Source of the DNA: Candidatus Freyarchaeum deiterrae
GTDB lineage: Archaea; Asgardarchaeota; Jordiarchaeia; Jordiarchaeales; Jordiarchaeaceae
Assembly (NCBI GenBank): GCA_037305845.1
Contig: CP147778.1
Coordinates: forward strand, 1,376,001 to 1,440,000
Direction of reading: 5' to 3'
Length of the DNA stretch: 64,000 nucleotides
Shown here: one piece after another, positions 31,048-55,710 of the stretch
Layout of the letters: every line of letters begins with the position of its first letter
How positions within the stretch are numbered: the first letter of the stretch is position 1
Translations under genes and position numbers: made by a program
The notes under the pieces: model-generated
The model's input: only the letters and a program-made list of their open reading frames with translations
Told to the model about the DNA's origin: nothing
Databases searched by the model: none

Positions 31048-33879
31048 ATGGACTGGAATCAAATAGAAAAAAAATGGCAAGACAAATGGAAAGAAGCAAA
31101 AATATTCCAAGCAACCCCGCCACCAAAGAACAAAAGAAAAGGAAAACAAAAGCAAGGAGTACTATGCACATTCCCCTATCCATACATGAATTTGACTTTG
31201 CATTTGGGTCATGCTTTGACCTGTTTGCGTGTTGATATTTATGCTCGTTTTAAGCGTATGCAGGGTTTTAATGTTCTTTTTCCTTTTGCTTTTCATTATA
31301 CTGGTGAGCCTATTGTGGGTGTGGCTAAGCGTGTTGCTGAGGGTGATGAGAAGCAGATTGATATTCTGGTTAGGAGTGGTGTGCCGCGGAGTGAGATGGG
31401 TAAGTTTAAGGATCCGAAATACATCGGGGATTATTATAGGGGCGAGGCTACAGAGGCTGTTAATAGGATTGGGTTTAGTGTTGATTGGCGGCGGCAGTTT
31501 ACGACTGTTGATCCTCCTTATAACAAGTTTATAGAGTGGCAGTATTGGACTTTGCGTGATAAGGGCTATGTGGTTTTGGGTACTCATCCGGTTGTTTGGT
31601 GCCCTCGGGATCTTTCTCCTACGGGTGATCATGATCGACTGGTGGGTGAGGGTGTTTCTCCCATCGAGTATACTTTGTTGAAGTTTGAGTGTGATGGTGC
31701 TTTTCTTGTTGCTGCTACTCTGCGTCCTGAGACTGTTTTTGGTGTTACTAATATGTGGTTGAATCCGGATGCGGTTTATGTTCGTGTTAGTGTTGATGGT
31801 GAGGAGTGGATTGTTAGTGAGGCGGCGGTTCAGAAGCTGCGGGATCAGCTTCACGAGATTGAGGTTTTGGATGAATTTGAGGGACGGAAGTTTATTGGTA
31901 AGTCCTGCCGTAATGTGATAGTAGGTAATGATGTTCCTATTTTGCCAGCTTCTTTTGTTGATCCGCTTAATGCTTCGGGTGTGGTTATGAGTGTCCCTAG
32001 TCATGCTCCTTTTGACTGGGCGGCTATCGCTGATTTGCGTAGGCATCCTGAGATTTTAGAGGAGTATGGTATTGATCCGCATGTGGTGGAGGAGTTGGAG
32101 CCTGTTTCTTTGATTGAGACTGAGGGTTTGGGTGAGCATCCTGCGGTAGAGCTTGTTGAGGCGGCGGGTATTAGTGATCAGAATGATGAGCGGTTAGAGG
32201 AGATAACTAAGGAGGTTTATCGGAAGGAGTTTCATAAGGGTGTTCTTAGGGAGGTTACTGGTAAGTATGCGGGGCGTGGTGTTAGTGAGGTTAAGAAGGA
32301 GTTGATTGCGGATTTTGTGGATGAGGGTAAGGCGAGTAGTTTGTGGGAGACTGCGGAACCCGTGATTTGTCGTTGCAATACGCGTACTATTGTTAAGATT
32401 TTGGAGAATCAGTGGTTTTTGAAGTATAGTGATACGGAGTGGAAGGCGAGGGTTAGGGAGCTTATGGGGCGTATGGTTATTGTTCCGGATGAGGCGAGGA
32501 GTGCTTTTGAGTATACTGTGGATTGGTTGGAGGATAAGGCGTGTGTGAGGAAGAGTGGATTAGGTACTAGGCTTCCTTGGGATCCGGAGTGGATTGTGGA
32601 GACTCTGTCGGATTCTACGATTTACATGGCTTTCTACACGATTGCTAATTACATTTATGGTTTGGGGGTTCCTGCTGAGAAGTTGATTCGTGAGGTTTTT
32701 GATTATGTTTTGTTGGGTAAGGGTGTTGTGGATGAGGTTGCGGGTAAGAGTGGTTTGGATGAGGAGCTTTTGGAGAGTATGCGGGATGAGTTTGAGTACT
32801 GGTATCCTGTGGCTCTCAGGAATTCGGCTAAGGAGCTGATTTTTAATCACTTGACATTTTTCTTGTTTCAGCATGTGGCTATTTGGCCTGAGGATAAGTG
32901 GCCTCTGATGGTGGGGGCTAATGGTATGATTCAGATTGAGGGGCAGAAGATGAGTAAGTCTCGGGGGATTTTTATTACTATGAAGGAGGCTTTGGATCAG
33001 TATAATGCGGATCCCACTCGTGTGGAGTTGGCTTATTCTGCGGAGGGGCTTACTGATCCGGATTGGAGGGTTCAGGAGGTTGTGAGTCTTCGTAGGAGGC
33101 TGGAGATGTTTTATGATTTTGCTACCGAGCTTCCTGAGACGAAGGCTTTGGACCGGGATATTGACCGCTGGCTTTCGAGTAAGCTTAATAGACGTATTAA
33201 AGCGGCTACTGATTACTTTGAGGTTATGAGGAATCGCTCCGCTCTTCAGGAGTGCTTTTTCGATTTGTGGAATGATATTCGCTGGTATATGAAGCGGACT
33301 GATGAGTATTCCGATGTTTTGAGGTTCACTTTGGAGGCTATGACTCTGATGCTTGCTCCTGTGGCGCCTCACATCTGTGAGGAAATCTGGGAGAAAACAG
33401 GTCATAAAAAATTCATTGTTCAGGCATCTTGGCCGGTTTATGATGAGAAGTGTTGCGATGAAGAGTTGGAGATTGAGGAGAATCTTATCGGTAGCATCAT
33501 TGGGGATGTTAAGGAGATTCTCAAGGTAACTAGAATTGAGAAGCCGTCCAAGATTGTTCTTTTCATGGCTCCGAGTTGGAAGTATAGGATTCTGGAGGAG
33601 TCGATTAAGAGCAGGGAAGATTTGATTAAGAGGGTTATGATGGATTCTGAGGTTAAGAAGCAGGGCAAGTCGGCAGCGGATTATGCGCAAAAACTGCTTA
33701 AGAATCCTCGTTACCAGTTGATGGCTCCGGAAAAGGAGTATCAGACTCTCGTAGAGGCAAAAGATTTTCTTGCCAAAGAGCTTGGAGCGAATATTGAGAT
33801 CCTGAAGGCTGAAGAGTCAAAGCATGAGAAGGCCAAAGTCGCAGAGCCTATGAAGCCAGGGGTTCTTATAGAAACATAA
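31048..33879 (+). CDS. leuS: Leucine--tRNA ligase (archaeal type)
   Basis: PYPYMN..LHLGH (HIGH motif), KMSKS, editing-domain TLRPET, and C-terminal AEPMKP. Confidence 0.95.
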   Translation: MDWNQIEKKWQDKWKEAKIFQATPPPKNKRKGKQKQGVLCTFPYPYMNLTLHLGHALTCLRVDIYARFKRMQGFNVLFPFAFHYTGEPIVGVAKRVAEGDEKQIDILVRSGVPRSEMGKFKDPKYIGDYYRGEATEAVNRIGFSVDWRRQFTTVDPPYNKFIEWQYWTLRDKGYVVLGTHPVVWCPRDLSPTGDHDRLVGEGVSPIEYTLLKFECDGAFLVAATLRPETVFGVTNMWLNPDAVYVRVSVDGEEWIVSEAAVQKLRDQLHEIEVLDEFEGRKFIGKSCRNVIVGNDVPILPASFVDPLNASGVVMSVPSHAPFDWAAIADLRRHPEILEEYGIDPHVVEELEPVSLIETEGLGEHPAVELVEAAGISDQNDERLEEITKEVYRKEFHKGVLREVTGKYAGRGVSEVKKELIADFVDEGKASSLWETAEPVICRCNTRTIVKILENQWFLKYSDTEWKARVRELMGRMVIVPDEARSAFEYTVDWLEDKACVRKSGLGTRLPWDPEWIVETLSDSTIYMAFYTIANYIYGLGVPAEKLIREVFDYVLLGKGVVDEVAGKSGLDEELLESMRDEFEYWYPVALRNSAKELIFNHLTFFLFQHVAIWPEDKWPLMVGANGMIQIEGQKMSKSRGIFITMKEALDQYNADPTRVELAYSAEGLTDPDWRVQEVVSLRRRLEMFYDFATELPETKALDRDIDRWLSSKLNRRIKAATDYFEVMRNRSALQECFFDLWNDIRWYMKRTDEYSDVLRFTLEAMTLMLAPVAPHICEEIWEKTGHKKFIVQASWPVYDEKCCDEELEIEENLIGSIIGDVKEILKVTRIEKPSKIVLFMAPSWKYRILEESIKSREDLIKRVMMDSEVKKQGKSAADYAQKLLKNPRYQLMAPEKEYQTLVEAKDFLAKELGANIEILKAEESKHEKAKVAEPMKPGVLIET

Positions 33880-33980
33880 CAAAATCTTTCTTTATTGGAT
33901 TTTATCCGGAAAAATTGAAGCCCATGCAACCTTTTTTATTATTTTGGAAATGTACAAAAAGGTACTGAAAAAATGAGGAG

Positions 33981-35546
33981 TTATTTTTTTGGCCAGGTTA
34001 CTGTTTGGGGGACTTCGGGGAGTTTGTCGCCTATGTACTTTTTGATTTTTTTTGGCCAGTCGTCATAGTTGAATCCGTGGCGAATTAGGTTGACGTATGC
34101 GAATCTTGATGGTCCTATGCCTACGCAGCCAGTGTAGACTGTTTTTCGGGTTTTGTCTCGGAAGTGGAATCTTTTTGCGTAGAAGTCGGTGTGTACGTGG
34201 AAGCTGGCGATTTCTAGTTCGGCTTCGGGTCGGCTTTTGGTTTCGAAGGGTAGTATTACTGTGAGGTCGTAGGTTTTAACGAATTCTTCTTTTTCCTTTT
34301 TTTCTTCTGTAATTCCGGCGTGTTCTAGGTATACAGCGGTGGTTGCGTCTACTCGGTATTCAAGGTCTAGGTCTTTGTCTACAATGATTTTTGCTTTTTC
34401 GAGTATTTGGTCTCTGATTTCTATGGTTTTTTCGGGTGGTGCCATGTAGACGAATTCTATTCTGTGGAATTCGTTTAGGCGTTCTAGTCCTTTTAGTCCT
34501 CCTCCCTCCCATCGCCAAGTGGGTCCGTTTTTGTCATATAGCTTTATAGGGTTTTTTCCCAGTTCCTCTACGTCTACTATTTCTTGGGAGAATAGTTCAT
34601 AGAAGGGTTCACATTGTGCGTAGGCTAGTCCGAACGTTGGGGGGCGGAGTTTTTTCTGTAAGAGTTCTACGGGAGGGGTTCCAGTTATTTCCGCGTAGTC
34701 TAGGATCTCTTCGAATTCTTTGGGGTCTCGGGATATTGGGGGGCAGGCCCATATTATTTCGTTGGCTATTCCGAAATGTCCCTTTCTCATCTCTACGTCG
34801 AGTGGGATTAGTCGAGGTAGAATAACTTCTTTGAAGCCTAGGGGTTTAGCGATTTCTTCGACCACCATGCTTTCCACGGCTCGAATGAGTGCTGCGTAGG
34901 GGGGCATTATCTGCCAGATGCCCGCTCCTAGGAATTCTTTAACCCACCCTAGTTTGATCGCTGTTTCGGTTGGATCCTCTCGGAACTTGTATTTTTGTAG
35001 GCCTTTATTGCTCCTTTCCACTGTGCGGGTGAATTCAGCCTTTCCCGTGATGTGTTGAGCAGCAATTTTTTCTTCGAGTCGCCGCAGTAGACGGTCGGGG
35101 TAGTTTCTTTTGAGCTCACTTTCGTCCATTTCCACCATAGTAATGTAAGCCTTTTTGTCTTCGATTTTTAATTGCTTGGTGAAGGGCAGTGTTAAGGGCT
35201 CTAAGGGTTCTTTTTCGAGCTCGGCTTCAATCTGGTACTCTGTAGCAACCGTTTTTCGAACACCAACATGGTATTTCTCTCCTAAGAGCTCGGATAGGGA
35301 GTTTGATAGTCTGAGTACCGCGGCGTGTGCTCTCACATACCTGCCGCTGATTATTTGCAGTTCTACTTTATTACCCTTCAGAGTCCATCTTGTTACTTCT
35401 GCTCCCTCGGACTCCTTCCCTTTGGGGGCTCCTTTTTTGAGCACTTTTTCGTTAGCGTCATCAAAAAAGGCCTTTAATTCATTTTGAGCTTCTTTGGGTA
35501 GATTATCGCTAAGTTCAAGGTAACCATTCAATTTTAAAAGCAACAT
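33981..35546 (-). CDS. serS: Serine--tRNA ligase, type 2 (methanogen-type)
   Basis: N-terminal 'SGRYVRAHAAVLRL'; Zn-ligand motifs YAQCEPF, NEFHRIE and TGCVGIG. ATG 35546 follows the RBS GAGGTGA. Confidence 0.88.
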   Translation of the reverse strand: MLLLKLNGYLELSDNLPKEAQNELKAFFDDANEKVLKKGAPKGKESEGAEVTRWTLKGNKVELQIISGRYVRAHAAVLRLSNSLSELLGEKYHVGVRKTVATEYQIEAELEKEPLEPLTLPFTKQLKIEDKKAYITMVEMDESELKRNYPDRLLRRLEEKIAAQHITGKAEFTRTVERSNKGLQKYKFREDPTETAIKLGWVKEFLGAGIWQIMPPYAALIRAVESMVVEEIAKPLGFKEVILPRLIPLDVEMRKGHFGIANEIIWACPPISRDPKEFEEILDYAEITGTPPVELLQKKLRPPTFGLAYAQCEPFYELFSQEIVDVEELGKNPIKLYDKNGPTWRWEGGGLKGLERLNEFHRIEFVYMAPPEKTIEIRDQILEKAKIIVDKDLDLEYRVDATTAVYLEHAGITEEKKEKEEFVKTYDLTVILPFETKSRPEAELEIASFHVHTDFYAKRFHFRDKTRKTVYTGCVGIGPSRFAYVNLIRHGFNYDDWPKKIKKYIGDKLPEVPQTVTWPKK

Positions 35547-36187: not shown

Positions 36188-37948
36188 TTAGGAAAGCAAG
36201 TTGAGGATGGTTAGAGCATAGATTTTGGCTGCTGTGAGCAACTCATCTACAGATATACTCTCGTTAGCGGCGTGAGCTTCCTTAGAATCTCCCGGCCCAA
36301 AAACTGCTGTGGGAATGCCGCGTAGAATGCATTGTTTGGCCACTGTAGCGCCTCCTATTCCGATAAGCTTCGGTGAGCTTCCTATTACTTCCTGAACTAC
36401 ATTTGCAAGTACCCTAACAACGGGGTCTTCAGGGGATACTTCTGTGGGAGGGTCTGAAGCTATAGGTTCTATGGTGACCTCCAATTCTGGATTCTCCCTC
36501 TTGACGCTCTTCACTAACTCACGCAGTTCGTTCACTATCTGTTTAGGTTCTTGGGAAGGTAAATATCTAATGTCCACTTTGGCTTCAGCGGAAGCTGGAA
36601 TCATATTAGTGGCTATTCCGCCCTGAATGGTTCCCACATTTATGGTTGGAGTATTAAATAATGGATGTTCAACATATTCCATTTTTAGATTTTCTATTCG
36701 GGCTAAAACTTTTGAAAGATTCACAATCGCGTTAGCACCCTTTTCAGGCATACTACCGTGACCCTGCGTACCCGTGCTCCTCAACTTAACCCATAATCGT
36801 CCTTTCTCCGCTATCTCGATTGATTTACTCTTGGTCTGTTCAGCCACCAGAGCATAGTCGGCAGTCAGCCCCCTCTCGTTTAATAGGTATTTTATGCCAA
36901 GCTCATTTCCAGTTTCCTCATCCGCCACAGCAACAAACATTAGACGCCCTCTGATAGGGAAATTAAACTCCTTAAGTGCCTGGAGGGCGAGAAGAACAGA
37001 GGCTGCAGGACCCTTATCATCCACCGAACCCCTACCGGCTATTCTACCATCAGTAGGAGTTGCCTTAAAGGGGTCATATATCCATCCATCTCCCGGTGGT
37101 ACTACATCAAGATGAGTTATAATCATTAAAGCGGGTGAAGCTCCCTTATCAATCCAACCCACCACATTGGTTCTACCACTCTCCTTCTCATAAGTCTCAG
37201 TGTGCAACCCAATCCTGTACAGTTCTCCCTGAACAACATCCGCGGCAAGCTTCTCGTTACCCGGTGGGTTAACAGAATGAGCAGTAATCAAATCCCCAAG
37301 AAGGTGTAAAAGATATTCCCTACGCTGATCAATGAATCCTAAGACCTTGCTTTTAACCTCGGGAACCACCACGCCCTTCGTTACTGAGGAGGGTTTCTCT
37401 TCAATACCCAACAAACGTCGAGCGATGCTTTGAAATGCCATGCTCACCTTATCGCCGGTCTTAGCACTAGTTTCTATATAGGGAGCTCCTAAACTTCTTG
37501 CAAACCTCTCAGCCTCTTGCTGAGAAACTACACGCGCACTGGCAAGATCATTCTTGTTTCCGATTATAACAATCGGCACCTCGCCGCAAACATTAAACAA
37601 GTCCTTCTGCCAAGCAGAAACATTCTTAAAAGACTTTGTGTCGGTGAGGTCAAAAACAATTATACCACCCTTAGAACCTTGATAAAAAAAGGATCTAAGA
37701 TGAGAAAATGAAGGCTGCCCACCAAGATCCCAGACCTGCAAAGTCACAATGGAATCTGCCACATTCATAGTATGAGCAGCGAACGAGGTTCCCAAGGTCA
37801 TCTTGTAATCTTCGGAGAACCTGTTTTCGGTCAATCTCACTATTAGGCTTGTCTTACCCACACCGCCATCTCCAACTACTACGACTTTGAATGCGTATTC
37901 TTCTTGTTTGGAGCTCATGTCCAGTCCACCCCTTTTTTCTTTTGCCAT
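36188..37948 (-). CDS. Rab-like small GTPase fused to an M20 (ArgE/DapE) metallopeptidase
   Basis: G motifs GDGGVGKT, WDLGGQ, NKND and ETSAK, then M20 motifs THLDVVP, GRGSVDDKG, DEE and AHAANE in one frame. Confidence 0.85.
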   Translation of the reverse strand: MAKEKRGGLDMSSKQEEYAFKVVVVGDGGVGKTSLIVRLTENRFSEDYKMTLGTSFAAHTMNVADSIVTLQVWDLGGQPSFSHLRSFFYQGSKGGIIVFDLTDTKSFKNVSAWQKDLFNVCGEVPIVIIGNKNDLASARVVSQQEAERFARSLGAPYIETSAKTGDKVSMAFQSIARRLLGIEEKPSSVTKGVVVPEVKSKVLGFIDQRREYLLHLLGDLITAHSVNPPGNEKLAADVVQGELYRIGLHTETYEKESGRTNVVGWIDKGASPALMIITHLDVVPPGDGWIYDPFKATPTDGRIAGRGSVDDKGPAASVLLALQALKEFNFPIRGRLMFVAVADEETGNELGIKYLLNERGLTADYALVAEQTKSKSIEIAEKGRLWVKLRSTGTQGHGSMPEKGANAIVNLSKVLARIENLKMEYVEHPLFNTPTINVGTIQGGIATNMIPASAEAKVDIRYLPSQEPKQIVNELRELVKSVKRENPELEVTIEPIASDPPTEVSPEDPVVRVLANVVQEVIGSSPKLIGIGGATVAKQCILRGIPTAVFGPGDSKEAHAANESISVDELLTAAKIYALTILNLLS

Positions 37949-50078: not shown

Positions 50079-50291
50079 TGGTGGGGACGGAGAGATTTCC
50101 AAGGAGAAACAGAGTTTCCCATTTTGAACTCCCGACTAACAGGTTTCTTCAGCTCACTGCTCCAGAAGTTCATCATCTTCTGGTCAGCAAACCTGATTAT
50201 TATCATTGCCTCTGGAGCCTGCCGTGCTTCTTAGCCGAGTTCAGAACAACCAAACTATTGTCCCGAACAACTCTGACTACACTACGTCCCC
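50079..50291 (-). tRNA. trnW: tRNA-Trp(CCA) with three introns (18/19, 37/38, 59/60)
   Basis: Removing 50231..50272, 50145..50211 and 50096..50122 gives GGGGACG TA GTGT AGTCAGGAA GCAC G GCAGG CT CCA GA CCTGT TAGTC GGGAG TTCAAAT CTCTC CGTCCCC A CCA, a full cloverleaf. Each intron sits in a BHB-like motif. Confidence 0.9.
50145..50211 (-). ncRNA. Box C/D guide RNA encoded by the tRNA-Trp anticodon intron
   Basis: Box C ATGATAA, D' CTGA, C' ATGATGA, D GTGA. Guides CAGGTTT and TCTGGAGC are complementary to the pre-tRNA; the N+5 rule lands on C39 and C34. Confidence 0.85.
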
Positions 50292-50553
50292 ACCGAAATG
50301 GGTTAGGCAGCAACACACCAAACATGGTGCGTGTAAAAATGATAAGTGCAAGAATTACATAAAGTTTTTGTTTCCCTCCTCTTTTGCCTCTCAAACCCCG
50401 CACACCTAATTTCAGAACACAAAACCATTACAATAAACCATAAAACATCAAACCAGTAAGCAATAAAAAGCCACAAAAATCAAAAAAGTCCAAAAATAAA
50501 CAAACACACAAAACCGCAAAAAAAACACGAAATTAGGAATGCGGCGTCGCTGT

Positions 50554-50675
50554 TCCGTGTTCGGTAAGAGAACGGGTGATCCCCATGCACTATGACCGGC
50601 ACCGAGGCGCCAGCATTCGGTTTTTCCGCTCCCTCGCGGAGAGCAGTACTCACAGAATCGTACATGAGCTTAACT
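50554..50675 (-). rRNA. rrf: 5S rRNA, circularly permuted gene (3' half 50675-50606 precedes 5' half 50603-50554), enclosed by a BHB motif
   Basis: The 5' half GGTGCCGGTCATAGTGCATGGGGATCACCCGTTCTCTTACCGAACACGGA lies downstream of the 3' half AGTTAAGCTCATGTACGATTC...GCTCTCCGCGAGGGAGC...GAATGCTGGCGCC. Helices I-V all pair. Confidence 0.9.
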
Positions 50676-50713
50676 TTCACGCAGCGACGTCTATCTCTCA
50701 CATAACAAACGGA

Positions 50714-50721
50714 AATATAAA
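50714..50721 (-). promoter_or_regulatory. TATA box for the permuted 5S precursor
   Basis: TTTATATT on the minus strand, preceded by an A-rich BRE-like GAAA, about 25-30 nt upstream of the BHB outer stem. Confidence 0.55.
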
Positions 50722-50997
50722 CATTTCTAAGCAATAACAAACAATATACACACCCTCAAACTACAGGCATAAACACAAAAACATCATCATAAAAACACGT
50801 TAAATTACAAAGAAAAAAAACAAGTATGGCCGGTTGAAAACAATAATGATATTCTTATGAAAGTAGTAGCCTTGCAGATACAAATACGACTTAATCCACA
50901 CATCCTCCGCAAAAATTAACCAACTAGAGACAGCGTTCAACAAATGAACAGAAAAATTTATATTTTAAAGTTAATTCTAATCAAACACACAGAATGC

Positions 50998-51132
50998 GCC
51001 CAAGTGGTGTAGCCCGGTCTATCATCGCGGCCTGTCACGTCGTGGACACAAAAACGATGGTTTAGTGGCGGGAACCCGAGGCCAAAAAACAAAGGTTTTA
51101 TGGCGGGAATTCAAATCTCGGCTTGGGCGCCA
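50998..51132 (+). tRNA. trnD: tRNA-Asp(GUC) with two non-canonical introns (45/46, 53/54)
   Basis: Removing 51046..51073 and 51081..51109 gives GCCCAAG TG GTGT AGCCCGGTCTA TCAT C GCGGC CT GTC AC GTCGT GGAC CCGAG TTCAAAT CTCGG CTTGGGC G CCA. TATA-like TTTATATT upstream at ~50957. Confidence 0.9.
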
Positions 51133-51331
51133 ACACTTCTTCTATAAAGCAGTTTCCAATTATTGAGGATTTTTTAGGTTTTCCATTTTTAGATATGAAA
51201 TAGCTCTGCTGTGATTTTTAAAAAAATAATTATGTGATCTATGAATGAGTAGAGGAGGTTAAGCTCGGAACTCAGAAAGGGAAAAAAAATATAAATCTCC
51301 ATAGGCTATCTTAGGATGCTCTGAAAAATGT

Positions 51332-51497
51332 GGGCCGTTAGCTCAGGGGCGCAACGAAACCGTTGAACCGAGAAATTAGGTAGAGCGTCTGACTTCGGTG
51401 GACTTCCCCCCGAAGGGTGAAGCTTTTAACCAGGCGGTCGCGGGAAGCTTCTGAAACTTATCGGGGCTCGCGAATTCAAATCCTGCACGGCCCGCCA
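51332..51497 (+). tRNA. trnK: tRNA-Lys(UUU) with three non-canonical introns (15/16, 30/31, 53/54)
   Basis: Removing 51347..51375, 51392..51421 and 51445..51474 gives GGGCCGT TA GCTC AGTTAGGTA GAGC G TCTGG CT TTT AA CCAGG CGGTC GCGGG TTCAAAT CCTGC ACGGCCC G CCA. Confidence 0.9.
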
Positions 51498-51681
51498 AAA
51501 CTCATTCAGATTTTCTGTATTGAAAATTGAATGTTTTAGGTTGAAAAATTTGAGAGTTGTATGATAGAATAAGAATATAAAGTGCTTTGTTTTAGTTTTT
51601 CATTGTTGTTAGTTTCTTGTAGTCGCGTGGGATGGTTTAAAACAGATTTATAGTTTGTTTGTGATTGGTTGATTCCTAGAA

Positions 51682-54600
51682 GTGGTTGTTATGTCTAATG
51701 GTGAACAGTTGGATAATTGGCGTATTGTGGAAGCTTTCATCGAGGAAAATGGTCTGGTTCGGCAGCACCTAGATTCTTATGACGAGTTTATTAGACATGG
51801 ACTGCAGCAGGTAGTAGACGAGATTGCAGCCATTGAGCCGGAAGGAGAGAATTACTACGTTAGGCTGGGTAAAATTGAGATAGGGAAGCCTACAGTGAAA
51901 GAGGCTGACGGCTCAACCATGCCGGTTTTTCCCAACGAGGCCCGCATCCGTAACCTGACATATGCCTCAAACCTTCACTTGGAGATGGCTATAGTTTATA
52001 GTGACGAACGGGGAGGAGATACTGAAGAAGCCCCAGTTGAGGTTTACATAGGCAGAATTCCAATCATGTTAAAATCCGAAAAGTGTCCCCTTTCCCAGTT
52101 GAGCAGGGAGGAACTCATAACTCTGGGAGAGGATCCCGATGACCCGGGAGGCTACTTTATTATAAATGGAAGTGAGAGGGTTCTGGTCACTCAGGAAGAC
52201 CTCGCCCCTAACCGTATCCTTATTGAGGAGGCTAATAAGAGCAGTTCATCCACCCACGTTGCTAAAGTTTTTAGCACAGCTCAAGGTTTCCGAGCCCCAG
52301 TAACTATGGAGCGACGACGAGACGGCTCCCTCAGGATTTCTTTCCCCTCGGTTCCCGGAAAGATTCCGCTAGTAGTTTTAATGCGCGCCCTCGGGCTGGA
52401 GAGTGATAAACAGATCGCCGAGGCGATTTCCGATGAGGATGAGATTGTCCGCGAATTAATTCCCTCAATTGAGGCGGCGTCTACAATTATCTCCCGTGAC
52501 GAGTCACTTGACTACGTTGGCAAGCGTGTCGCCGTGGGTCAGACCAGAGACTACCGCCTGAAGAGAGCGGAACAGGTTCTGGACCGGTACCTTCTCCCAC
52601 ACATCGGTACTGACGCTAAGGACCGGTTAAGAAAAGCGTTCTACCTGGGCCAGATGGCTTCGCATATTATTGAGTTGGCTCTCGGCAAGAGAACCGAGGA
52701 TGATAAGGACCATTACGCTAATAAGAGATTGAAGCTCGCCGGTGACCTGCTGATGAGCTTGTTCCGGGTGGCTTTCCTCAGCCTCTGCAGAGACATTAAA
52801 TACCAGCTTGAGAGAAACGCCGTCAGAGGCAGACGGAGAAACATCAAGACTGCAGTTCGTGCAGACGTAATTACAGACCGCTTACATCACGCGCTCGCAA
52901 CAGGAAACTGGGTAGGCGGCAAAGCCGGAGTAAGCCAGCTTCTAGACAGAACCAATTATATGTCCGCCCTCAGCCACCTCAGAAGAGTCGTTTCTCCCTT
53001 GAGCAGAAGCCAGCCTCACTTCGAAGCTCGAGACCTGCACCCCACCCACTGGGGCAAAATCTGCCCTAACGAGACACCAGAAGGACCTAACTGTGGACTA
53101 GTTAAAAACCTAGCGCTCCTAGCTTACATATCCGTAGGCGCAGACGAAAAGGAGATTGAAAGCGTCTTCGTGGATCTAGGTGTGCAACCCATAGAAGAGA
53201 TAAAGAGAGAGAAGGGAGCCAAAGGCGCCCAAGTCTACGTCAACGGTCGACTGATAGGAGTACACATGCAACCTCTAGTCCTCGTAGCGGAAGTAAAGAA
53301 GCGGAGGAGAAGCGGCCAAATAAACAATGAGGTAAACATCGCCTACTACTCCGACACTAACGAGATACAGACCAACTGCGACCAAGGACGAGCAAGACGC
53401 CCCCTAATAATAGTGGAAAACAAGACCACCAAATACACCACAGAACACGCGACAAAACTCAGAAGCAAGGAATGGAAGTTCAGCGACCTAATACGCAGAG
53501 GAATAGTGGAATTCCTAGACGCAGAAGAAGAAGAAAACACCCACATAGCAATGACCCCACCGGACATAAACGAGAAAACCACCCACATAGAAATCGCGCC
53601 CACTTCAATCCTTGGAATATCTGCATCCATAATACCCTACCCCGAACACAACCAAAGCCCAAGAAACACTTATGAAGCTGGAATGGTAAAACAAGCCCTC
53701 GGATTATTCGCAGCCAACTACCGAACAAGAGCAGACACACGCGCCCATCTACTCCACTACCCACAAACCCCAATGGTGAACACAAAATCAACCACACCCA
53801 CAGGATTCGACAAAAGACCTGCAGGACAAAACTTCATAGTAGCAGTAATATCCTACGAAGGATACAACATAGAAGACGCCATAATAATAAACCAAGCCTC
53901 CATACAACGCGGACTAGGAAGATCAACCTTCTTCAGAAGCTACGAAGCTGAAGAAAGGAAATACCCCGGAGGACAAGAAGATAAATTCGAAATACCCGAC
54001 CGCAGCGTCAGAGGATACCGCGCCGCAGAAGCCTACCGCCACCTATCCGACGACGGAATAATCGAACCCGAAGTCGAAGTCCTAGGCGGAGAAATAATAA
54101 TAGGAAGAACAAGCCCCCCAAGATTCCTAGAAGAAAACGCAGGCTTCGAACTACCCACCCAAACCCGAAGAGAAACCTCAACCAGCATGCGACACGGAGA
54201 ACTAGGAACCGTAGACACAGTAAGCGTAACCGAAACCATAGACGGAAACAGACTAGTCAAAGTCAAAATCAGAGACCTAAGAATACCCGAACTAGGCGAT
54301 AAATTCGCAACACGCCACGGACAAAAAGGAATAATCGGACTAATAGTACCCCAAGAAGACCTACCCTTCACAGAAGACGGCGTAGTCCCAGACCTCATAG
54401 TCAACCCACATGCAGTACCATCACGAATGACCATAGGACAAATAATAGAATCCATAGCCGGAAAAGTAGGCGCACTCAGCGGAAGAAGAATAGACGGCAC
54501 AGCGTTCAGCGGCGAACCACTAAAAGACCTATACAAAGAACTGACCAGCAGAGGCTTCAAACACAACGGTAGAGAAGTAATGTACAACGGAATAACCGGA

Positions 54601-55032
54601 AGAAAATACGAAGCAGACATATTCATAGGAGTCGTATACTACCAAAAACTACACCACATGGTATCAGACAAAATCCACGCCAGAGCCAGAGGACCAGTAC
54701 AAATACTAACAAGACAACCGACAGAAGGACGAGCCAGAGAAGGCGGACTCAGATTCGGAGAAATGGAAAGAGACTGCCTCATAGGCCACGGAAGTGCGCT
54801 AATTTTGAAGGAGAAGCTTGTCGATGAGAGTGATAAGACTACTTCTCTTGTTTGTGAGGATTGTGGTATGCTCGCCGTGTACGATAAGAATAAGGGTCGT
54901 TACTATTGTCCGCTTTGTGGTGAGGATATTCGGGTTTCCAAGGTTAACATGAGCTACGCCTTCAAACTGTTGTTGCAGGAGCTTATGGCTTTGGGTATTG
55001 CTCCGCGTCTTAAGCTTGCGGAGAAAACTTGA
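51682..55032 (+). CDS. rpo2: DNA-directed RNA polymerase subunit Rpo2 (B), single chain
   Basis: GGYFIINGSE, ETPEG, GDKFATRHGQKG, GGLRFGEMERD and a C-terminal Zn ribbon. Confidence 0.97.
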   Translation: MVVMSNGEQLDNWRIVEAFIEENGLVRQHLDSYDEFIRHGLQQVVDEIAAIEPEGENYYVRLGKIEIGKPTVKEADGSTMPVFPNEARIRNLTYASNLHLEMAIVYSDERGGDTEEAPVEVYIGRIPIMLKSEKCPLSQLSREELITLGEDPDDPGGYFIINGSERVLVTQEDLAPNRILIEEANKSSSSTHVAKVFSTAQGFRAPVTMERRRDGSLRISFPSVPGKIPLVVLMRALGLESDKQIAEAISDEDEIVRELIPSIEAASTIISRDESLDYVGKRVAVGQTRDYRLKRAEQVLDRYLLPHIGTDAKDRLRKAFYLGQMASHIIELALGKRTEDDKDHYANKRLKLAGDLLMSLFRVAFLSLCRDIKYQLERNAVRGRRRNIKTAVRADVITDRLHHALATGNWVGGKAGVSQLLDRTNYMSALSHLRRVVSPLSRSQPHFEARDLHPTHWGKICPNETPEGPNCGLVKNLALLAYISVGADEKEIESVFVDLGVQPIEEIKREKGAKGAQVYVNGRLIGVHMQPLVLVAEVKKRRRSGQINNEVNIAYYSDTNEIQTNCDQGRARRPLIIVENKTTKYTTEHATKLRSKEWKFSDLIRRGIVEFLDAEEEENTHIAMTPPDINEKTTHIEIAPTSILGISASIIPYPEHNQSPRNTYEAGMVKQALGLFAANYRTRADTRAHLLHYPQTPMVNTKSTTPTGFDKRPAGQNFIVAVISYEGYNIEDAIIINQASIQRGLGRSTFFRSYEAEERKYPGGQEDKFEIPDRSVRGYRAAEAYRHLSDDGIIEPEVEVLGGEIIIGRTSPPRFLEENAGFELPTQTRRETSTSMRHGELGTVDTVSVTETIDGNRLVKVKIRDLRIPELGDKFATRHGQKGIIGLIVPQEDLPFTEDGVVPDLIVNPHAVPSRMTIGQIIESIAGKVGALSGRRIDGTAFSGEPLKDLYKELTSRGFKHNGREVMYNGITGRKYEADIFIGVVYYQKLHHMVSDKIHARARGPVQILTRQPTEGRAREGGLRFGEMERDCLIGHGSALILKEKLVDESDKTTSLVCEDCGMLAVYDKNKGRYYCPLCGEDIRVSKVNMSYAFKLLLQELMALGIAPRLKLAEKT

Positions 55033-55077
55033 GCGAGGGTTTTCTCCTATAAAAAAATTTTAATTTATTTTTCTTAT

Positions 55078-55512
55078 TTAGCCGAATTGGTCGGTTATCA
55101 TTAGGTCTTTCATTTTTTCTATTTCGGGTAGTTGGTCGACTTTTTTTTGTTTGAAGAGGGAGTAGCTTTCCATGTTTTTGCTTTTTACCATTGCTATGAT
55201 GTCGTAGACTCCGCTTGTGCAGATGTACACTTTGATGACTTCTGGGTATTTGGCTATTTTTTTTGCAGTTTCTTGTGTTTTTTGGTGGTTGGTTTCGATT
55301 AAAAGTATTGCTAGTATATCGTAGCCTAGTTTTCTCCAGTCTATGGATATTGTGAATTTTTTGATTGTTTCTAGGTCTAGTAGTTTTTTTATTCTGTTTG
55401 TAACTGTACCAGCGCTTACTCCGGTTTTTAGTGATATTTCTTTCACTTGTGAGCGAGAGTCATTCTCTAGTATGTCTAGGATTTTTCGGTCTAGTTTGTC
55501 GAGGATTTTCAA
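55078..55512 (-). CDS. Lrp/AsnC family transcriptional regulator
   Basis: LDKLDRKIL..L..DSR HTH plus a RAM domain (SG.YD). Confidence 0.88.
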   Translation of the reverse strand: MKILDKLDRKILDILENDSRSQVKEISLKTGVSAGTVTNRIKKLLDLETIKKFTISIDWRKLGYDILAILLIETNHQKTQETAKKIAKYPEVIKVYICTSGVYDIIAMVKSKNMESYSLFKQKKVDQLPEIEKMKDLMITDQFG

Positions 55513-55710
55513 GGCTTGGCCCCTCGGTTTGATTAACCAAGAATGGTTAAAGGAAGGATATAAGTATGCTGGTAATTTTTTTAATGAAATTTTTCGAAAG
55601 CGTAAAAAATATGTTTAATTATTATAGAGAAACGAAAATCGGATTAAATTGAAGTTGGGTAAGTTAGAAATGTGGTTTTTTTGGGATTTGAATTATGATG
55701 TGGTGGAGTG

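Follow-up and report, generated by a model that had tools for sequence, protein, structure and literature searches.

A codon-sharp strand-composition flip inside rpo2 of Candidatus Freyarchaeum deiterrae, a possible entry point of a recurrent local DNA transaction

The rpo2 locus and its composition flip

The gene rpo2 of the Asgard archaeon Candidatus Freyarchaeum deiterrae contains a point at which the composition of the DNA strand reverses from almost pure A/C to G/T-rich. It lies in a stretch of 64,000 nucleotides (contig CP147778.1, positions 1,376,001 to 1,440,000; hereafter the window, in whose numbering positions are given unless they are marked as genome positions), which also carries gelsolin and Ras-family genes. 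The host genome (G000; other G and L numbers denote genomes and loci of relatives) is one contig of 3,576,204 bases with a G+C content of 40.7%. Skew is expressed as (A+C-G-T)/N on the plus strand, positive values being A/C-rich and negative values G/T-rich. The features around the flip are the following.

51500..52300, no strand: G/T-rich plus-strand tract over the rpo2 upstream region and the first ~200 codons, read from the sequence; the first 40 codons score -45 in G000 and -68 to -74 in five genus relatives
51682..55032, plus strand: rpo2, unsplit RNA polymerase subunit B, 1116 aa; Pfam Rpb2 domains 1-7, E to 5e-140; open reading frame (ORF) intact
52800..54792, no strand: A/C-rich plus-strand tract (minus strand G/T-rich) climbing toward the flip; third positions ~60% A/C at 52732 and 92-98% over 53782-54681; 400-nt skew +0.16 to +0.36
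54752..54791, plus strand: DNA island coding GLRFGEMERDCLIG, directly left of the flip; contigs of other organisms align to this stretch alone
54790..54795, no strand: flip point, between 54792 and 54793, at codon 1037/1038 of 1116, directly 3' of the GEMERDCLIGHG codons; change-point 54789-54792
54793..55512, no strand: G/T-rich plus-strand tract over the last 80 rpo2 codons, a 45-nt spacer and the whole Lrp gene; skew -0.28, -0.32; end near 55510
55078..55512, minus strand: Lrp/AsnC regulator gene, convergent with rpo2; Pfam HTH_AsnC-type and AsnC_trans_reg

An earlier note on this DNA had described rpo2 as progressively A/C at synonymous sites and as G/T from about 54795, with the G/T state carrying on into the oppositely oriented Lrp gene, and both descriptions are borne out. 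The A/C climb at third codon positions is progressive from about codon 350. The 400-nt windows from 53201 to 54800 have skews of +0.32, +0.36, +0.33 and +0.28, the AT skew reaches a maximum of +0.49, and 287 of 300 third positions over 53782-54681 are A or C. The two windows from 54801 to 55600 have skews of -0.28 and -0.32, and 54 of the 67 third positions from 54832 to the stop codon are G or T. The switch is razor-sharp, falling between one codon and its neighbour, and the G/T tract that begins there runs through Lrp to its end near 55510. The sense strand of Lrp is A/C-rich because the gene sits in a plus-strand G/T-rich tract. With the tract at its 5' end, rpo2 is flanked by two AC-to-GT switches, and the return in between is gradual. 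The 12 codons to the left of the flip have a mean amino-acid identity of 0.96 among 24 Asgard sequences, the 93rd percentile of the gene.

There is no rpo1 downstream of rpo2; the convergent Lrp/AsnC gene stands there instead, and the same arrangement is found in a genus relative (L002 1492-5339). Two ORFs lie antisense inside rpo2, at 54033-54626 (minus strand, 197 aa) and 53480-53797 (minus strand, 105 aa). They are by-products of a composition poor in stop codons and not genes.

The signal follows the DNA strand

When the skew around 115 flip centres of the genome is folded, it amounts over the first 100 nt to 0.51 at third positions, 0.26 in noncoding DNA, 0.05 at position 1 and 0.06 at position 2. 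All four site classes shift in the same direction and fade over about 1-1.8 kb. The gradual decay away from the edges that the earlier note had seen holds on average, the mean decay length being ~1 kb on both sides of the centre, but some tracts are plateaus, such as that of leucyl-tRNA synthetase (LeuRS), which stays at about -0.9 for 600 codons. The profiles of both rpo2 and LeuRS consist of a saturated plateau followed by a fall-off, a shape that a strong source decaying with distance would give.

Noncoding 120-nt windows reach skews of +-0.6-0.73, and 24 of 9037 have an absolute skew of at least 0.6 against a binomial expectation of 2e-11. The skew persists past stop codons, the downstream flanks of 140 genes with A/C-rich ends being A/C-rich for ~100 nt. 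The plus-frame third-position skews of adjacent genes correlate in tandem (r=0.39), convergent (0.53) and divergent (0.30) arrangement, and, by eye, about seven opposite-strand neighbour pairs among the most skewed genes (70 per sign) form one continuous tract. At the third positions of rpo2 the purine and pyrimidine totals are constant as T and G vanish. Around the centres G+C is steady at 0.38-0.40, and the ratios T/(T+C) and G/(G+A), taken on the G/T-rich strand, climb and fall off in parallel. It follows from this constancy that the changes are transitions: the strand leading 5'->3' away from the flip has undergone C>T and A>G, and as this outward strand gains G and T, its complement gains A and C. 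These observations speak for a pressure that acts on the DNA strand and passes through the filter of selection.

If selection acted on synonymous codons or on mRNA, the flip would be a programmed change from fast to slow translation. Codons ending in A or C form Watson-Crick pairs with G34/U34 tRNAs and A/C-rich RNA is unstructured; codons ending in G or U are wobble-decoded. Such selection agrees with the amplitude being greatest at third positions and with flips at conserved motifs, at the same site in paralogues (aIF5B/aEF2, two AAA ATPases and, on average, 34 Ras-like proteins). Noncoding DNA and positions 1 and 2 shift likewise, however, and the tracts enter opposite-strand genes with inverted sense composition, so that the correlations between neighbouring genes already contradict it. 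Essential genes also lie at opposite extremes, with third positions about 90% G/T in LeuRS and 96% A/C in rpo2. The shifts outside third positions and the skew shared by opposite-strand neighbours exclude codon or mRNA selection as the main cause, and as an account of the flip we hold it to be very improbable.

One polarity across the genome

In the window the earlier note had seen sharp edges running only from AC to GT on the plus strand. This holds for the whole genome, with a 3- to 17-fold excess over the reverse. With 300-nt arms and all positions counted, AC-to-GT steps exceed GT-to-AC steps by 192 to 59 at a step of at least 0.4, by 56 to 15 at 0.5 or more, and by 17 to 1 at 0.6 or more. 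When third positions and noncoding DNA are combined into one track, there are 81 against 21 (at least 0.8) and 21 against 2 (at least 1.0). Where both sides are strongly skewed the two polarities number 14 and 0 (at least 0.45 on each side) or 41 and 7 (at least 0.35), so switches from GT to AC are neither as sharp nor as frequent, and across the genome they are gradual. Shuffling codons within genes, a null that preserves the composition and orientation of each gene, leaves 42.6 and 20.8 steps of at least 0.4 (mean of five shuffles), and most of the signal is therefore intragenic structure.

The 40 strongest flips comprise 28 within genes, evenly along them, together with seven in convergent, four in tandem and one in divergent spacers. 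Among 115 flips, 56 are intragenic against 90.6 expected by length, and 20 are convergent against 3.8 expected. There are tens of strong points and hundreds of weak ones per genome. The spacing of switch points, which the earlier note had proposed to measure, lacks regularity: it is random, with a coefficient of variation of 0.99 (899 steps) or 1.07 (the 115 flips) and a median of 2.8 kb.

The flips at 54792/54793 and at 31188 in LeuRS have the polarity of the skew jump at an origin, the outward 5'->3' strand being G/T-rich. They might therefore be true dispersed replication origins, many bidirectional chromosomal start sites spaced by kilobases, for which both this polarity, equal to that of leading-strand skew, and the sharpness of the flip would speak. 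The cumulative keto-minus-amino (K-M) skew, however, has a single pair of extremes, a minimum at genome position 57,556 (origin) and a maximum at 1,608,305 (terminus). The window (1.376-1.440 Mb) lies inside one replichore, and the rpo2 flip is not an extremum. The chromosome-wide skew is an ordinary one of about +-0.045 added onto the local pattern. The flips share no motif, their spacing is random, a Pfam scan of the 51 genes of the window found no member of the Orc/Cdc6 family, and the two arms of one point, in aIF5B, are active independently. Contigs assembled from public sequencing runs have a depth that is flat along each contig. We regard dispersed origins as extremely improbable. In the consulted passages of one report on complete genomes of the same Asgard group, bidirectional replication is deduced from cumulative GC skew, which is chromosome-wide and the only skew mentioned, and the tRNA genes are said to be very rich in introns (PMC11291895).

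Conservation among relatives

Of 31 related genomes, 28 yielded an rpo2 orthologue; the alignment comprises 24 full-length sequences, and six fragments or very distant sequences were omitted. The positions of the switches, on whose conservation the earlier note had made its reading depend, are shared within the genus. The rpo2 flip lies at the same codon (+-5) in six of six genus genomes, with A/C-side scores of 90-100 for G000 and G002 and of 10-75 for the remaining four. The LeuRS flip lies at the same codon in six of six, followed by a plateau of -0.7 to -1.0 over ~600 codons. The aIF5B flip is confirmed in G000, and its G/T side is strong in all four genus genomes fetched. The A/C (left) side of aIF5B is strong in G000 only, and from this difference among genomes it follows that the two arms evolve or act independently. 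The genus consists of three deep lineages, in which third positions differ at 26-55% of the codons for the same amino acid and are nearly saturated. A flip that stays at the same codon despite such divergence must have been maintained and not merely inherited.

Outside the genus, the alignment of 24 has no flip at the rpo2 site in three same-order and 15 other Asgard genomes, and the LeuRS site carries a weak G/T patch in four of five same-order genomes. G005 retains the synteny of rpo2 and Lrp and the G/T tract over Lrp. Sharp flips of at least 0.4 number, per 400 kb, 12-28 from AC to GT and 3-12 from GT to AC in G000, 13 and 3 in a same-order genome, and 5 and 0 in another Asgard class. In 659 kb from 79 diverse archaeal rpo2 loci there is one of each, against 35 and 11 in G000 scaled to that length, so the phenomenon is lineage-specific. 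A metagenome scan for close strains gave no match above 71% identity.

In rpo2 of four close genomes, the variability of third positions is 0.29-0.31 within ~85 codons of the centre, compared with 0.15-0.17 across the first 400 codons.

What sits at the flips

What flips have in common is constraint: they lie in protein motifs that are ultra-conserved, and paralogues carry them at a common site. In aIF5B and aEF2 alike the flip directly precedes DTPGH; two AAA ATPases have it at GPE..SKWVGESEK, and two class I aminoacyl-tRNA synthetases (aaRS) at the HIGH region. Further flips lie in TBP and AtpB, at an ABC Walker B motif and at ferredoxin Cys motifs. When 34 Ras-like paralogues are averaged, third positions pass from +0.2 to -0.25 at switch I. 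The aIF5B flip falls within a perfect 6+3+6 palindrome, ACCAGG CAT CCTGGT (genome C1:1453771-1453785), which is a single case, and the surrounding 18 nt do not differ between four genus genomes (L169-L172) despite saturated synonymous sites elsewhere. By eye, a tRNA locus is found within 300 nt of three of the 115 strong flips (genome positions 1729527, 1725464 and 1230245), ~0.2 being the chance expectation with the ~11 loci that are detectable.

At the rpo2 site, the 18 other Asgard sequences have no step at codon positions 1 and 2 (43.8th percentile). An intein at the flip is rejected: four checked loci are continuous across residue 1037, and the rest, judged by match length, have no room for an insert. 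Insertions of ~1.4-1.6 kb, likely inteins, do occur in rpo2 of other Asgard archaea at residues ~458-494 (L043 4479-5902, L074 4200-5668 and G021 in L029/L026). A link to bulge-helix-bulge (BHB) introns is likewise rejected, since the rtcB intron, the only mRNA intron examined, has no centre of skew.

Two irregular rpo2 ends occur among the relatives. In G018 (C137:4037-4264) the last ~76 residues are in another frame from about residue 1036, and in the genus member G002 a second copy of residues 1029-1107, 76% identical, stands at a contig end (C332:4770-5006). Both break points coincide with the flip and may be assembly breaks caused by the change of composition.

Elsewhere in the genome, two strong flips adjoin long G-cluster runs (C1:25001 and 3539144), and noncoding DNA at C1:2591285 holds an (AAC)n run no shorter than 120 nt. 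Genes for beta-helix repeat proteins (C1:599906-603776 and 3534769-3536881) use A/C-ending codons with a T/G-ending patch at the 'TLTG' of each repeat, and they switch to G/T at the end of the repeat array.

A recurrent local transaction from fixed points

We favour, at a probability of roughly 0.45, the reading that 54792/54793 is a fixed point on the DNA from which a strand-asymmetric transition bias extends outward for ~1-3 kb on each side, the trace of a recurrent local DNA transaction. The rpo2 flip would most likely be an entry site for repair, recombination or unwinding, and neither a chromosomal origin nor a product of codon selection. The earlier note had proposed recurrent bidirectional initiation sites of DNA synthesis or unwinding, either dispersed origins or repair entry points. 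The outward course from a fixed point is retained from that proposal, in view of the polarity, the flip within a few bases and the skew that follows the strand, and the points may be repair entry points; the dispersed origins are not retained, given the single origin and terminus, the lack of a motif, the random spacing and the independent arms.

The transaction would start recurrently at the fixed point and might act in either of two ways. Opening of the duplex could leave the outward strand single-stranded, as a displaced or lagging-template strand, and subject to deamination. Alternatively, short-range resynthesis of the outward strand from a nick or break could introduce keto-biased (G.T-type) errors. 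By either route the outward 5'->3' strand would gain G and T through C>T and A>G. Mutagenesis of this kind would wear away its own entry sites unless purifying selection guards them. That only selection-protected points survive would explain why flips are found in ultra-conserved protein motifs and next to RNA genes, why orthologues and paralogues have them at a common site, and why they share no DNA motif. We prefer an entry point because it accounts for a change of sign from one base to the next, for plateaus that are saturated and then fall off, and for the greater variability close to the point. The skew would then arise by mutation rather than by fixation bias, and the sharp edge would mark the place where the process starts.

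The polarity could also be obtained from textbook resection and deamination chemistry, if the geometry that we suppose applies. Random breaks with 5'->3' resection and deaminating 3' tails would leave GT-to-AC switches that cancel one another, and a fixed barrier to resection would shield its sides and leave an AC-to-GT switch with exponential decay. The mean decay of ~1 kb on both sides and the gradual GT-to-AC transitions agree with this. The long saturated plateaus (about -0.9 for 600 codons in LeuRS, above 0.9 for ~300 in rpo2) cannot arise in this way, however, and fewer changes are predicted near the barrier, where the variability is higher. We know of no reason for conserved codons to block resection. 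Such a barrier is an improbable explanation.

Several observations weigh against the entry-point reading. No common motif emerged from k-mers of 4-7 nt within 25 nt on either side of 40 and of 115 centres, compared with composition-matched artificial junctions. The motif at the edges that the earlier note had suggested looking for is thus not clearly significant in either set, the best k-mers, GGAAT/ATTCC (12 of 40 against 3.6 expected) and AAGGG/CCCTT (23 of 115 against 8.8), being marginal after multiple-test correction. Hairpins or palindromes are not in excess at flips (mean best stem 3.79 against 3.63 in controls, p=0.19), nor is repeated DNA, exact matches of at least 16 nt elsewhere in the genome occurring at 37% of 115 centres and 29% of 690 controls. 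The candidate enzymes are likewise not suggestive. No Y-family polymerase (PF00817) was found in G000, which encodes uracil-DNA glycosylase (UDG; two hits), endonuclease V (one), NucS (one) and one ordinary deaminase of the cytidine deaminase (CDA) fold, with a weak MutS_V hit. There is therefore no obvious error-prone polymerase and no obvious gap in deamination repair. A reverse-transcriptase model like that of diversity-generating retroelements (DGR) was rejected because PF00078 (RVT_1) was not found in the complete G000 or in the ten other genomes of its order that were searched, four of 31 genomes overall having a match, and an Argonaute guide model because G000 has no Piwi domain. The gene calls, moreover, come from a crude ORF model, and the mixed track of third positions and noncoding DNA makes artificial edges at gene ends, with 300 edges of 'wrong' against 463 of 'right' polarity; sorting the 463 tract onsets by gene end is confounded by this track and is not used as evidence.

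Recent changes in rpo2 also run counter to the entry-point reading. In the four close genomes, third-position changes in the A/C part are 86 from A/C to G/T and 29 from G/T to A/C, and in the G/T-rich 5' part 15 erode the skew and four favour it. Since eroding changes prevail, the rpo2 tract is not being maintained in this clade, which fits episodic activity and equally fixation bias. Strand-asymmetric biased gene conversion, in which recombination between genome copies would start at the point and heteroduplex mismatches would be resolved with a bias specific to strand and base, is retained as a rival because fixation bias predicts that recent changes should oppose the skew. The kb-scale tracts resemble conversion tracts, and NucS, a mismatch endonuclease, is present. 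The erosion, however, concerns one clade and one gene only, and in the same clade the LeuRS tract is fully maintained. To our knowledge no repair bias gives a keto/amino strand asymmetry, and literature searches found none. We consider gene conversion decidedly improbable.

The last point against an entry point that acts blindly to genes is a gene-polar component. In 72% of 1220 genes the sense strand becomes A/C-richer toward the 3' end, regardless of replication direction; the sense A/C skew rises from 0.07 at mid-gene to 0.19 in the last 25 codons, the genome mean of the sense skew being +0.07. A purely orientation-blind process does not predict this. As the drift is alike in co-directional and head-on genes, there is a transcription-polar component beside the strong tracts, and for the same reason head-on collisions between replication and transcription are rejected as its source. 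The component agrees with divergent noncoding transcription from the point, whose untranslated RNAs would form R-loops and expose the displaced non-template strand to deamination (C>T and A>G). Polarity and transition signature would be the same as for an entry point, one broad switch lies at tRNA-like genes, three of the ~11 detectable tRNA loci are, by eye, near strong centres, and RNA-library contigs, which carry no strand or ends, cover five pieces of rpo2 within 51742-54190 and none to the right of the flip, where missing cover proves nothing. Two back-to-back archaeal promoters would by their geometry leave a gap of tens of bases, however, and the flip lies between adjacent codons. No TATA-like A/T box is readable at +-26 nt of 54792, and a scan for bacterial-type promoters and terminators, uninformative for an archaeon, gave nothing. 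The rpo2 sense strand is 96% A/C over 300 codons, the opposite of what its own transcription should leave, and the sign of the skew is independent of gene orientation (convergent r=0.53, divergent 0.30). Transcription from the point seems rather unlikely as the source of the flip.

It is possible, if doubtful, that the order of Asgard archaea to which this genome belongs and, more weakly, at least one other Asgard class possess a previously unknown site-anchored transaction, consisting of abortive micro-initiations of unwinding or synthesis or of nicking and repair, that has acted repeatedly at the same nucleotide over evolutionary times and would locally exceed every other source of mutation. 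Essential genes would then be written in two 'half-alphabets' on either side of a point, and the entry sites would survive only in sequence that cannot change.

Relation to known strand asymmetries

The strand asymmetry that mutation leaves behind is normally faint and extends over the chromosome, as a trace of replication or transcription. In the present genome it is local (~1-3 kb) and almost saturated, reverses from one codon to the next and has stayed fixed through saturating synonymous divergence. One close parallel is the asymmetry of the H and L strands of vertebrate mitochondria, which arises from strand-displacement replication, the strand left single undergoing C>T and A>G. The same two transitions, the near loss of G/T at third positions of genes on the other strand and a gradient of exposure, here over ~1 kb, are common to both. 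The present tracts, in contrast, are many, short and G+C-neutral, and they are bipolar around fixed points of a 3.6-Mb chromosome, for which we know of no displacement replication.

Full-text literature searches found no published description of local intragenic keto/amino skew flips in archaea, and none of the closest known patterns matches in scale, amplitude and position. In the human 'N-domains', as abstracts describe them, the skew jumps upward sharply at origins and returns gradually from one jump to the next (PMC2764438, PMC3320577). As far as these abstracts allow a comparison, the G/T-rich outward leading strand and the sawtooth of one-polarity jumps and gradual returns are alike, rpo2 lying between two such jumps. 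The tracts described here, however, extend over 1-3 kb and not over 0.1-1 Mb or a whole replichore, reach 96% and not a few per cent, and have their jumps inside coding motifs, separate from a chromosome-wide skew and with no origin features found. Transcription-associated asymmetry and R-loop GC skew, according to the abstracts of PMC3787257 and PMC3315797, have sharp onsets near gene ends that are opposite at 5' and 3' ends. A gene-polar component exists in our genome too, but the strong tracts ignore orientation, the rpo2 sense strand is A/C-rich and the flips are intragenic. Strand-coordinated, kataegis-like clusters of mutations in single-stranded DNA at double-strand breaks, as sketched in the abstracts of PMC6786661 and PMC3521656, resemble the tracts in showing one-strand damage over kilobases with a strand switch at a point. 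With 5'->3' resection and deamination they would be expected to give GT-to-AC switches, whereas AC-to-GT is found here, the reverse occurring 0 times against 14 at the 0.45 threshold, and the present pattern is an evolutionary equilibrium rather than a single event.

Asgard archaea are the group used for inferring the ancestry of eukaryotic DNA transactions. If the footprint marks fixed entry points of unwinding, repair or synthesis, it would provide a map of such points from sequence alone. The tracts distort codon-usage, synonymous-divergence (dS) and phylogenetic models for markers such as rpo2, aIF5B, EF2 and aaRS, create long spurious antisense ORFs such as that at 54033..54626 on the minus strand, and may break short-read assemblies at the flips.

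Other switches and features of the window

31188..33870, no strand: LeuRS flip at codon 46, before the HIGH motif, then a G/T-rich plateau across the gene; left +0.46, right -0.88
33977..35300, no strand: sharp start of a G/T-rich tract where LeuRS meets a convergent class II aaRS-like gene; left +0.04, right -0.86; skew -0.35, -0.26, -0.20
37811, no strand: flip at codon 56, in the GTPase switch I region, of a Ras-M20 fusion gene (36188..37948, minus strand); left +0.44, right -0.50
50380..50980, no strand: noncoding spacers, almost pure A/C on the plus strand, between G+C-rich RNA-like islands; the 120-nt window at genome position 1426412 (window 50412) has a skew of +0.72; no ORF of substance
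50990-51140 and 51333-51500, plus strand: two tRNA-like genes with several introns each, A/C-rich spacers on one side and the G/T-rich rpo2 leader on the other; acceptor-stem ends readable

The switches that the earlier note had placed near 37.9 kb and 51.5 kb are both present, the first at 37811 and the second as a broader one at ~50.5-51.6 kb, broken up by the two intron-bearing tRNA-like genes. The flips at 31188 and 33977 are stronger than those that it named. ARAGORN, and Rfam at the gathering score, found no tRNA in the whole 64-kb window; both miss tRNAs with multiple introns, and only ~11 tRNA loci are detectable in the genome. The islands at 50080-50300 and 50540-50700 are G+C-rich and probably structured RNA-like elements inside spacers of ~95% A/C, and match no Rfam family. 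At 36188-37948 on the minus strand, one ORF joins a Ras-family GTPase domain to an M20 peptidase.

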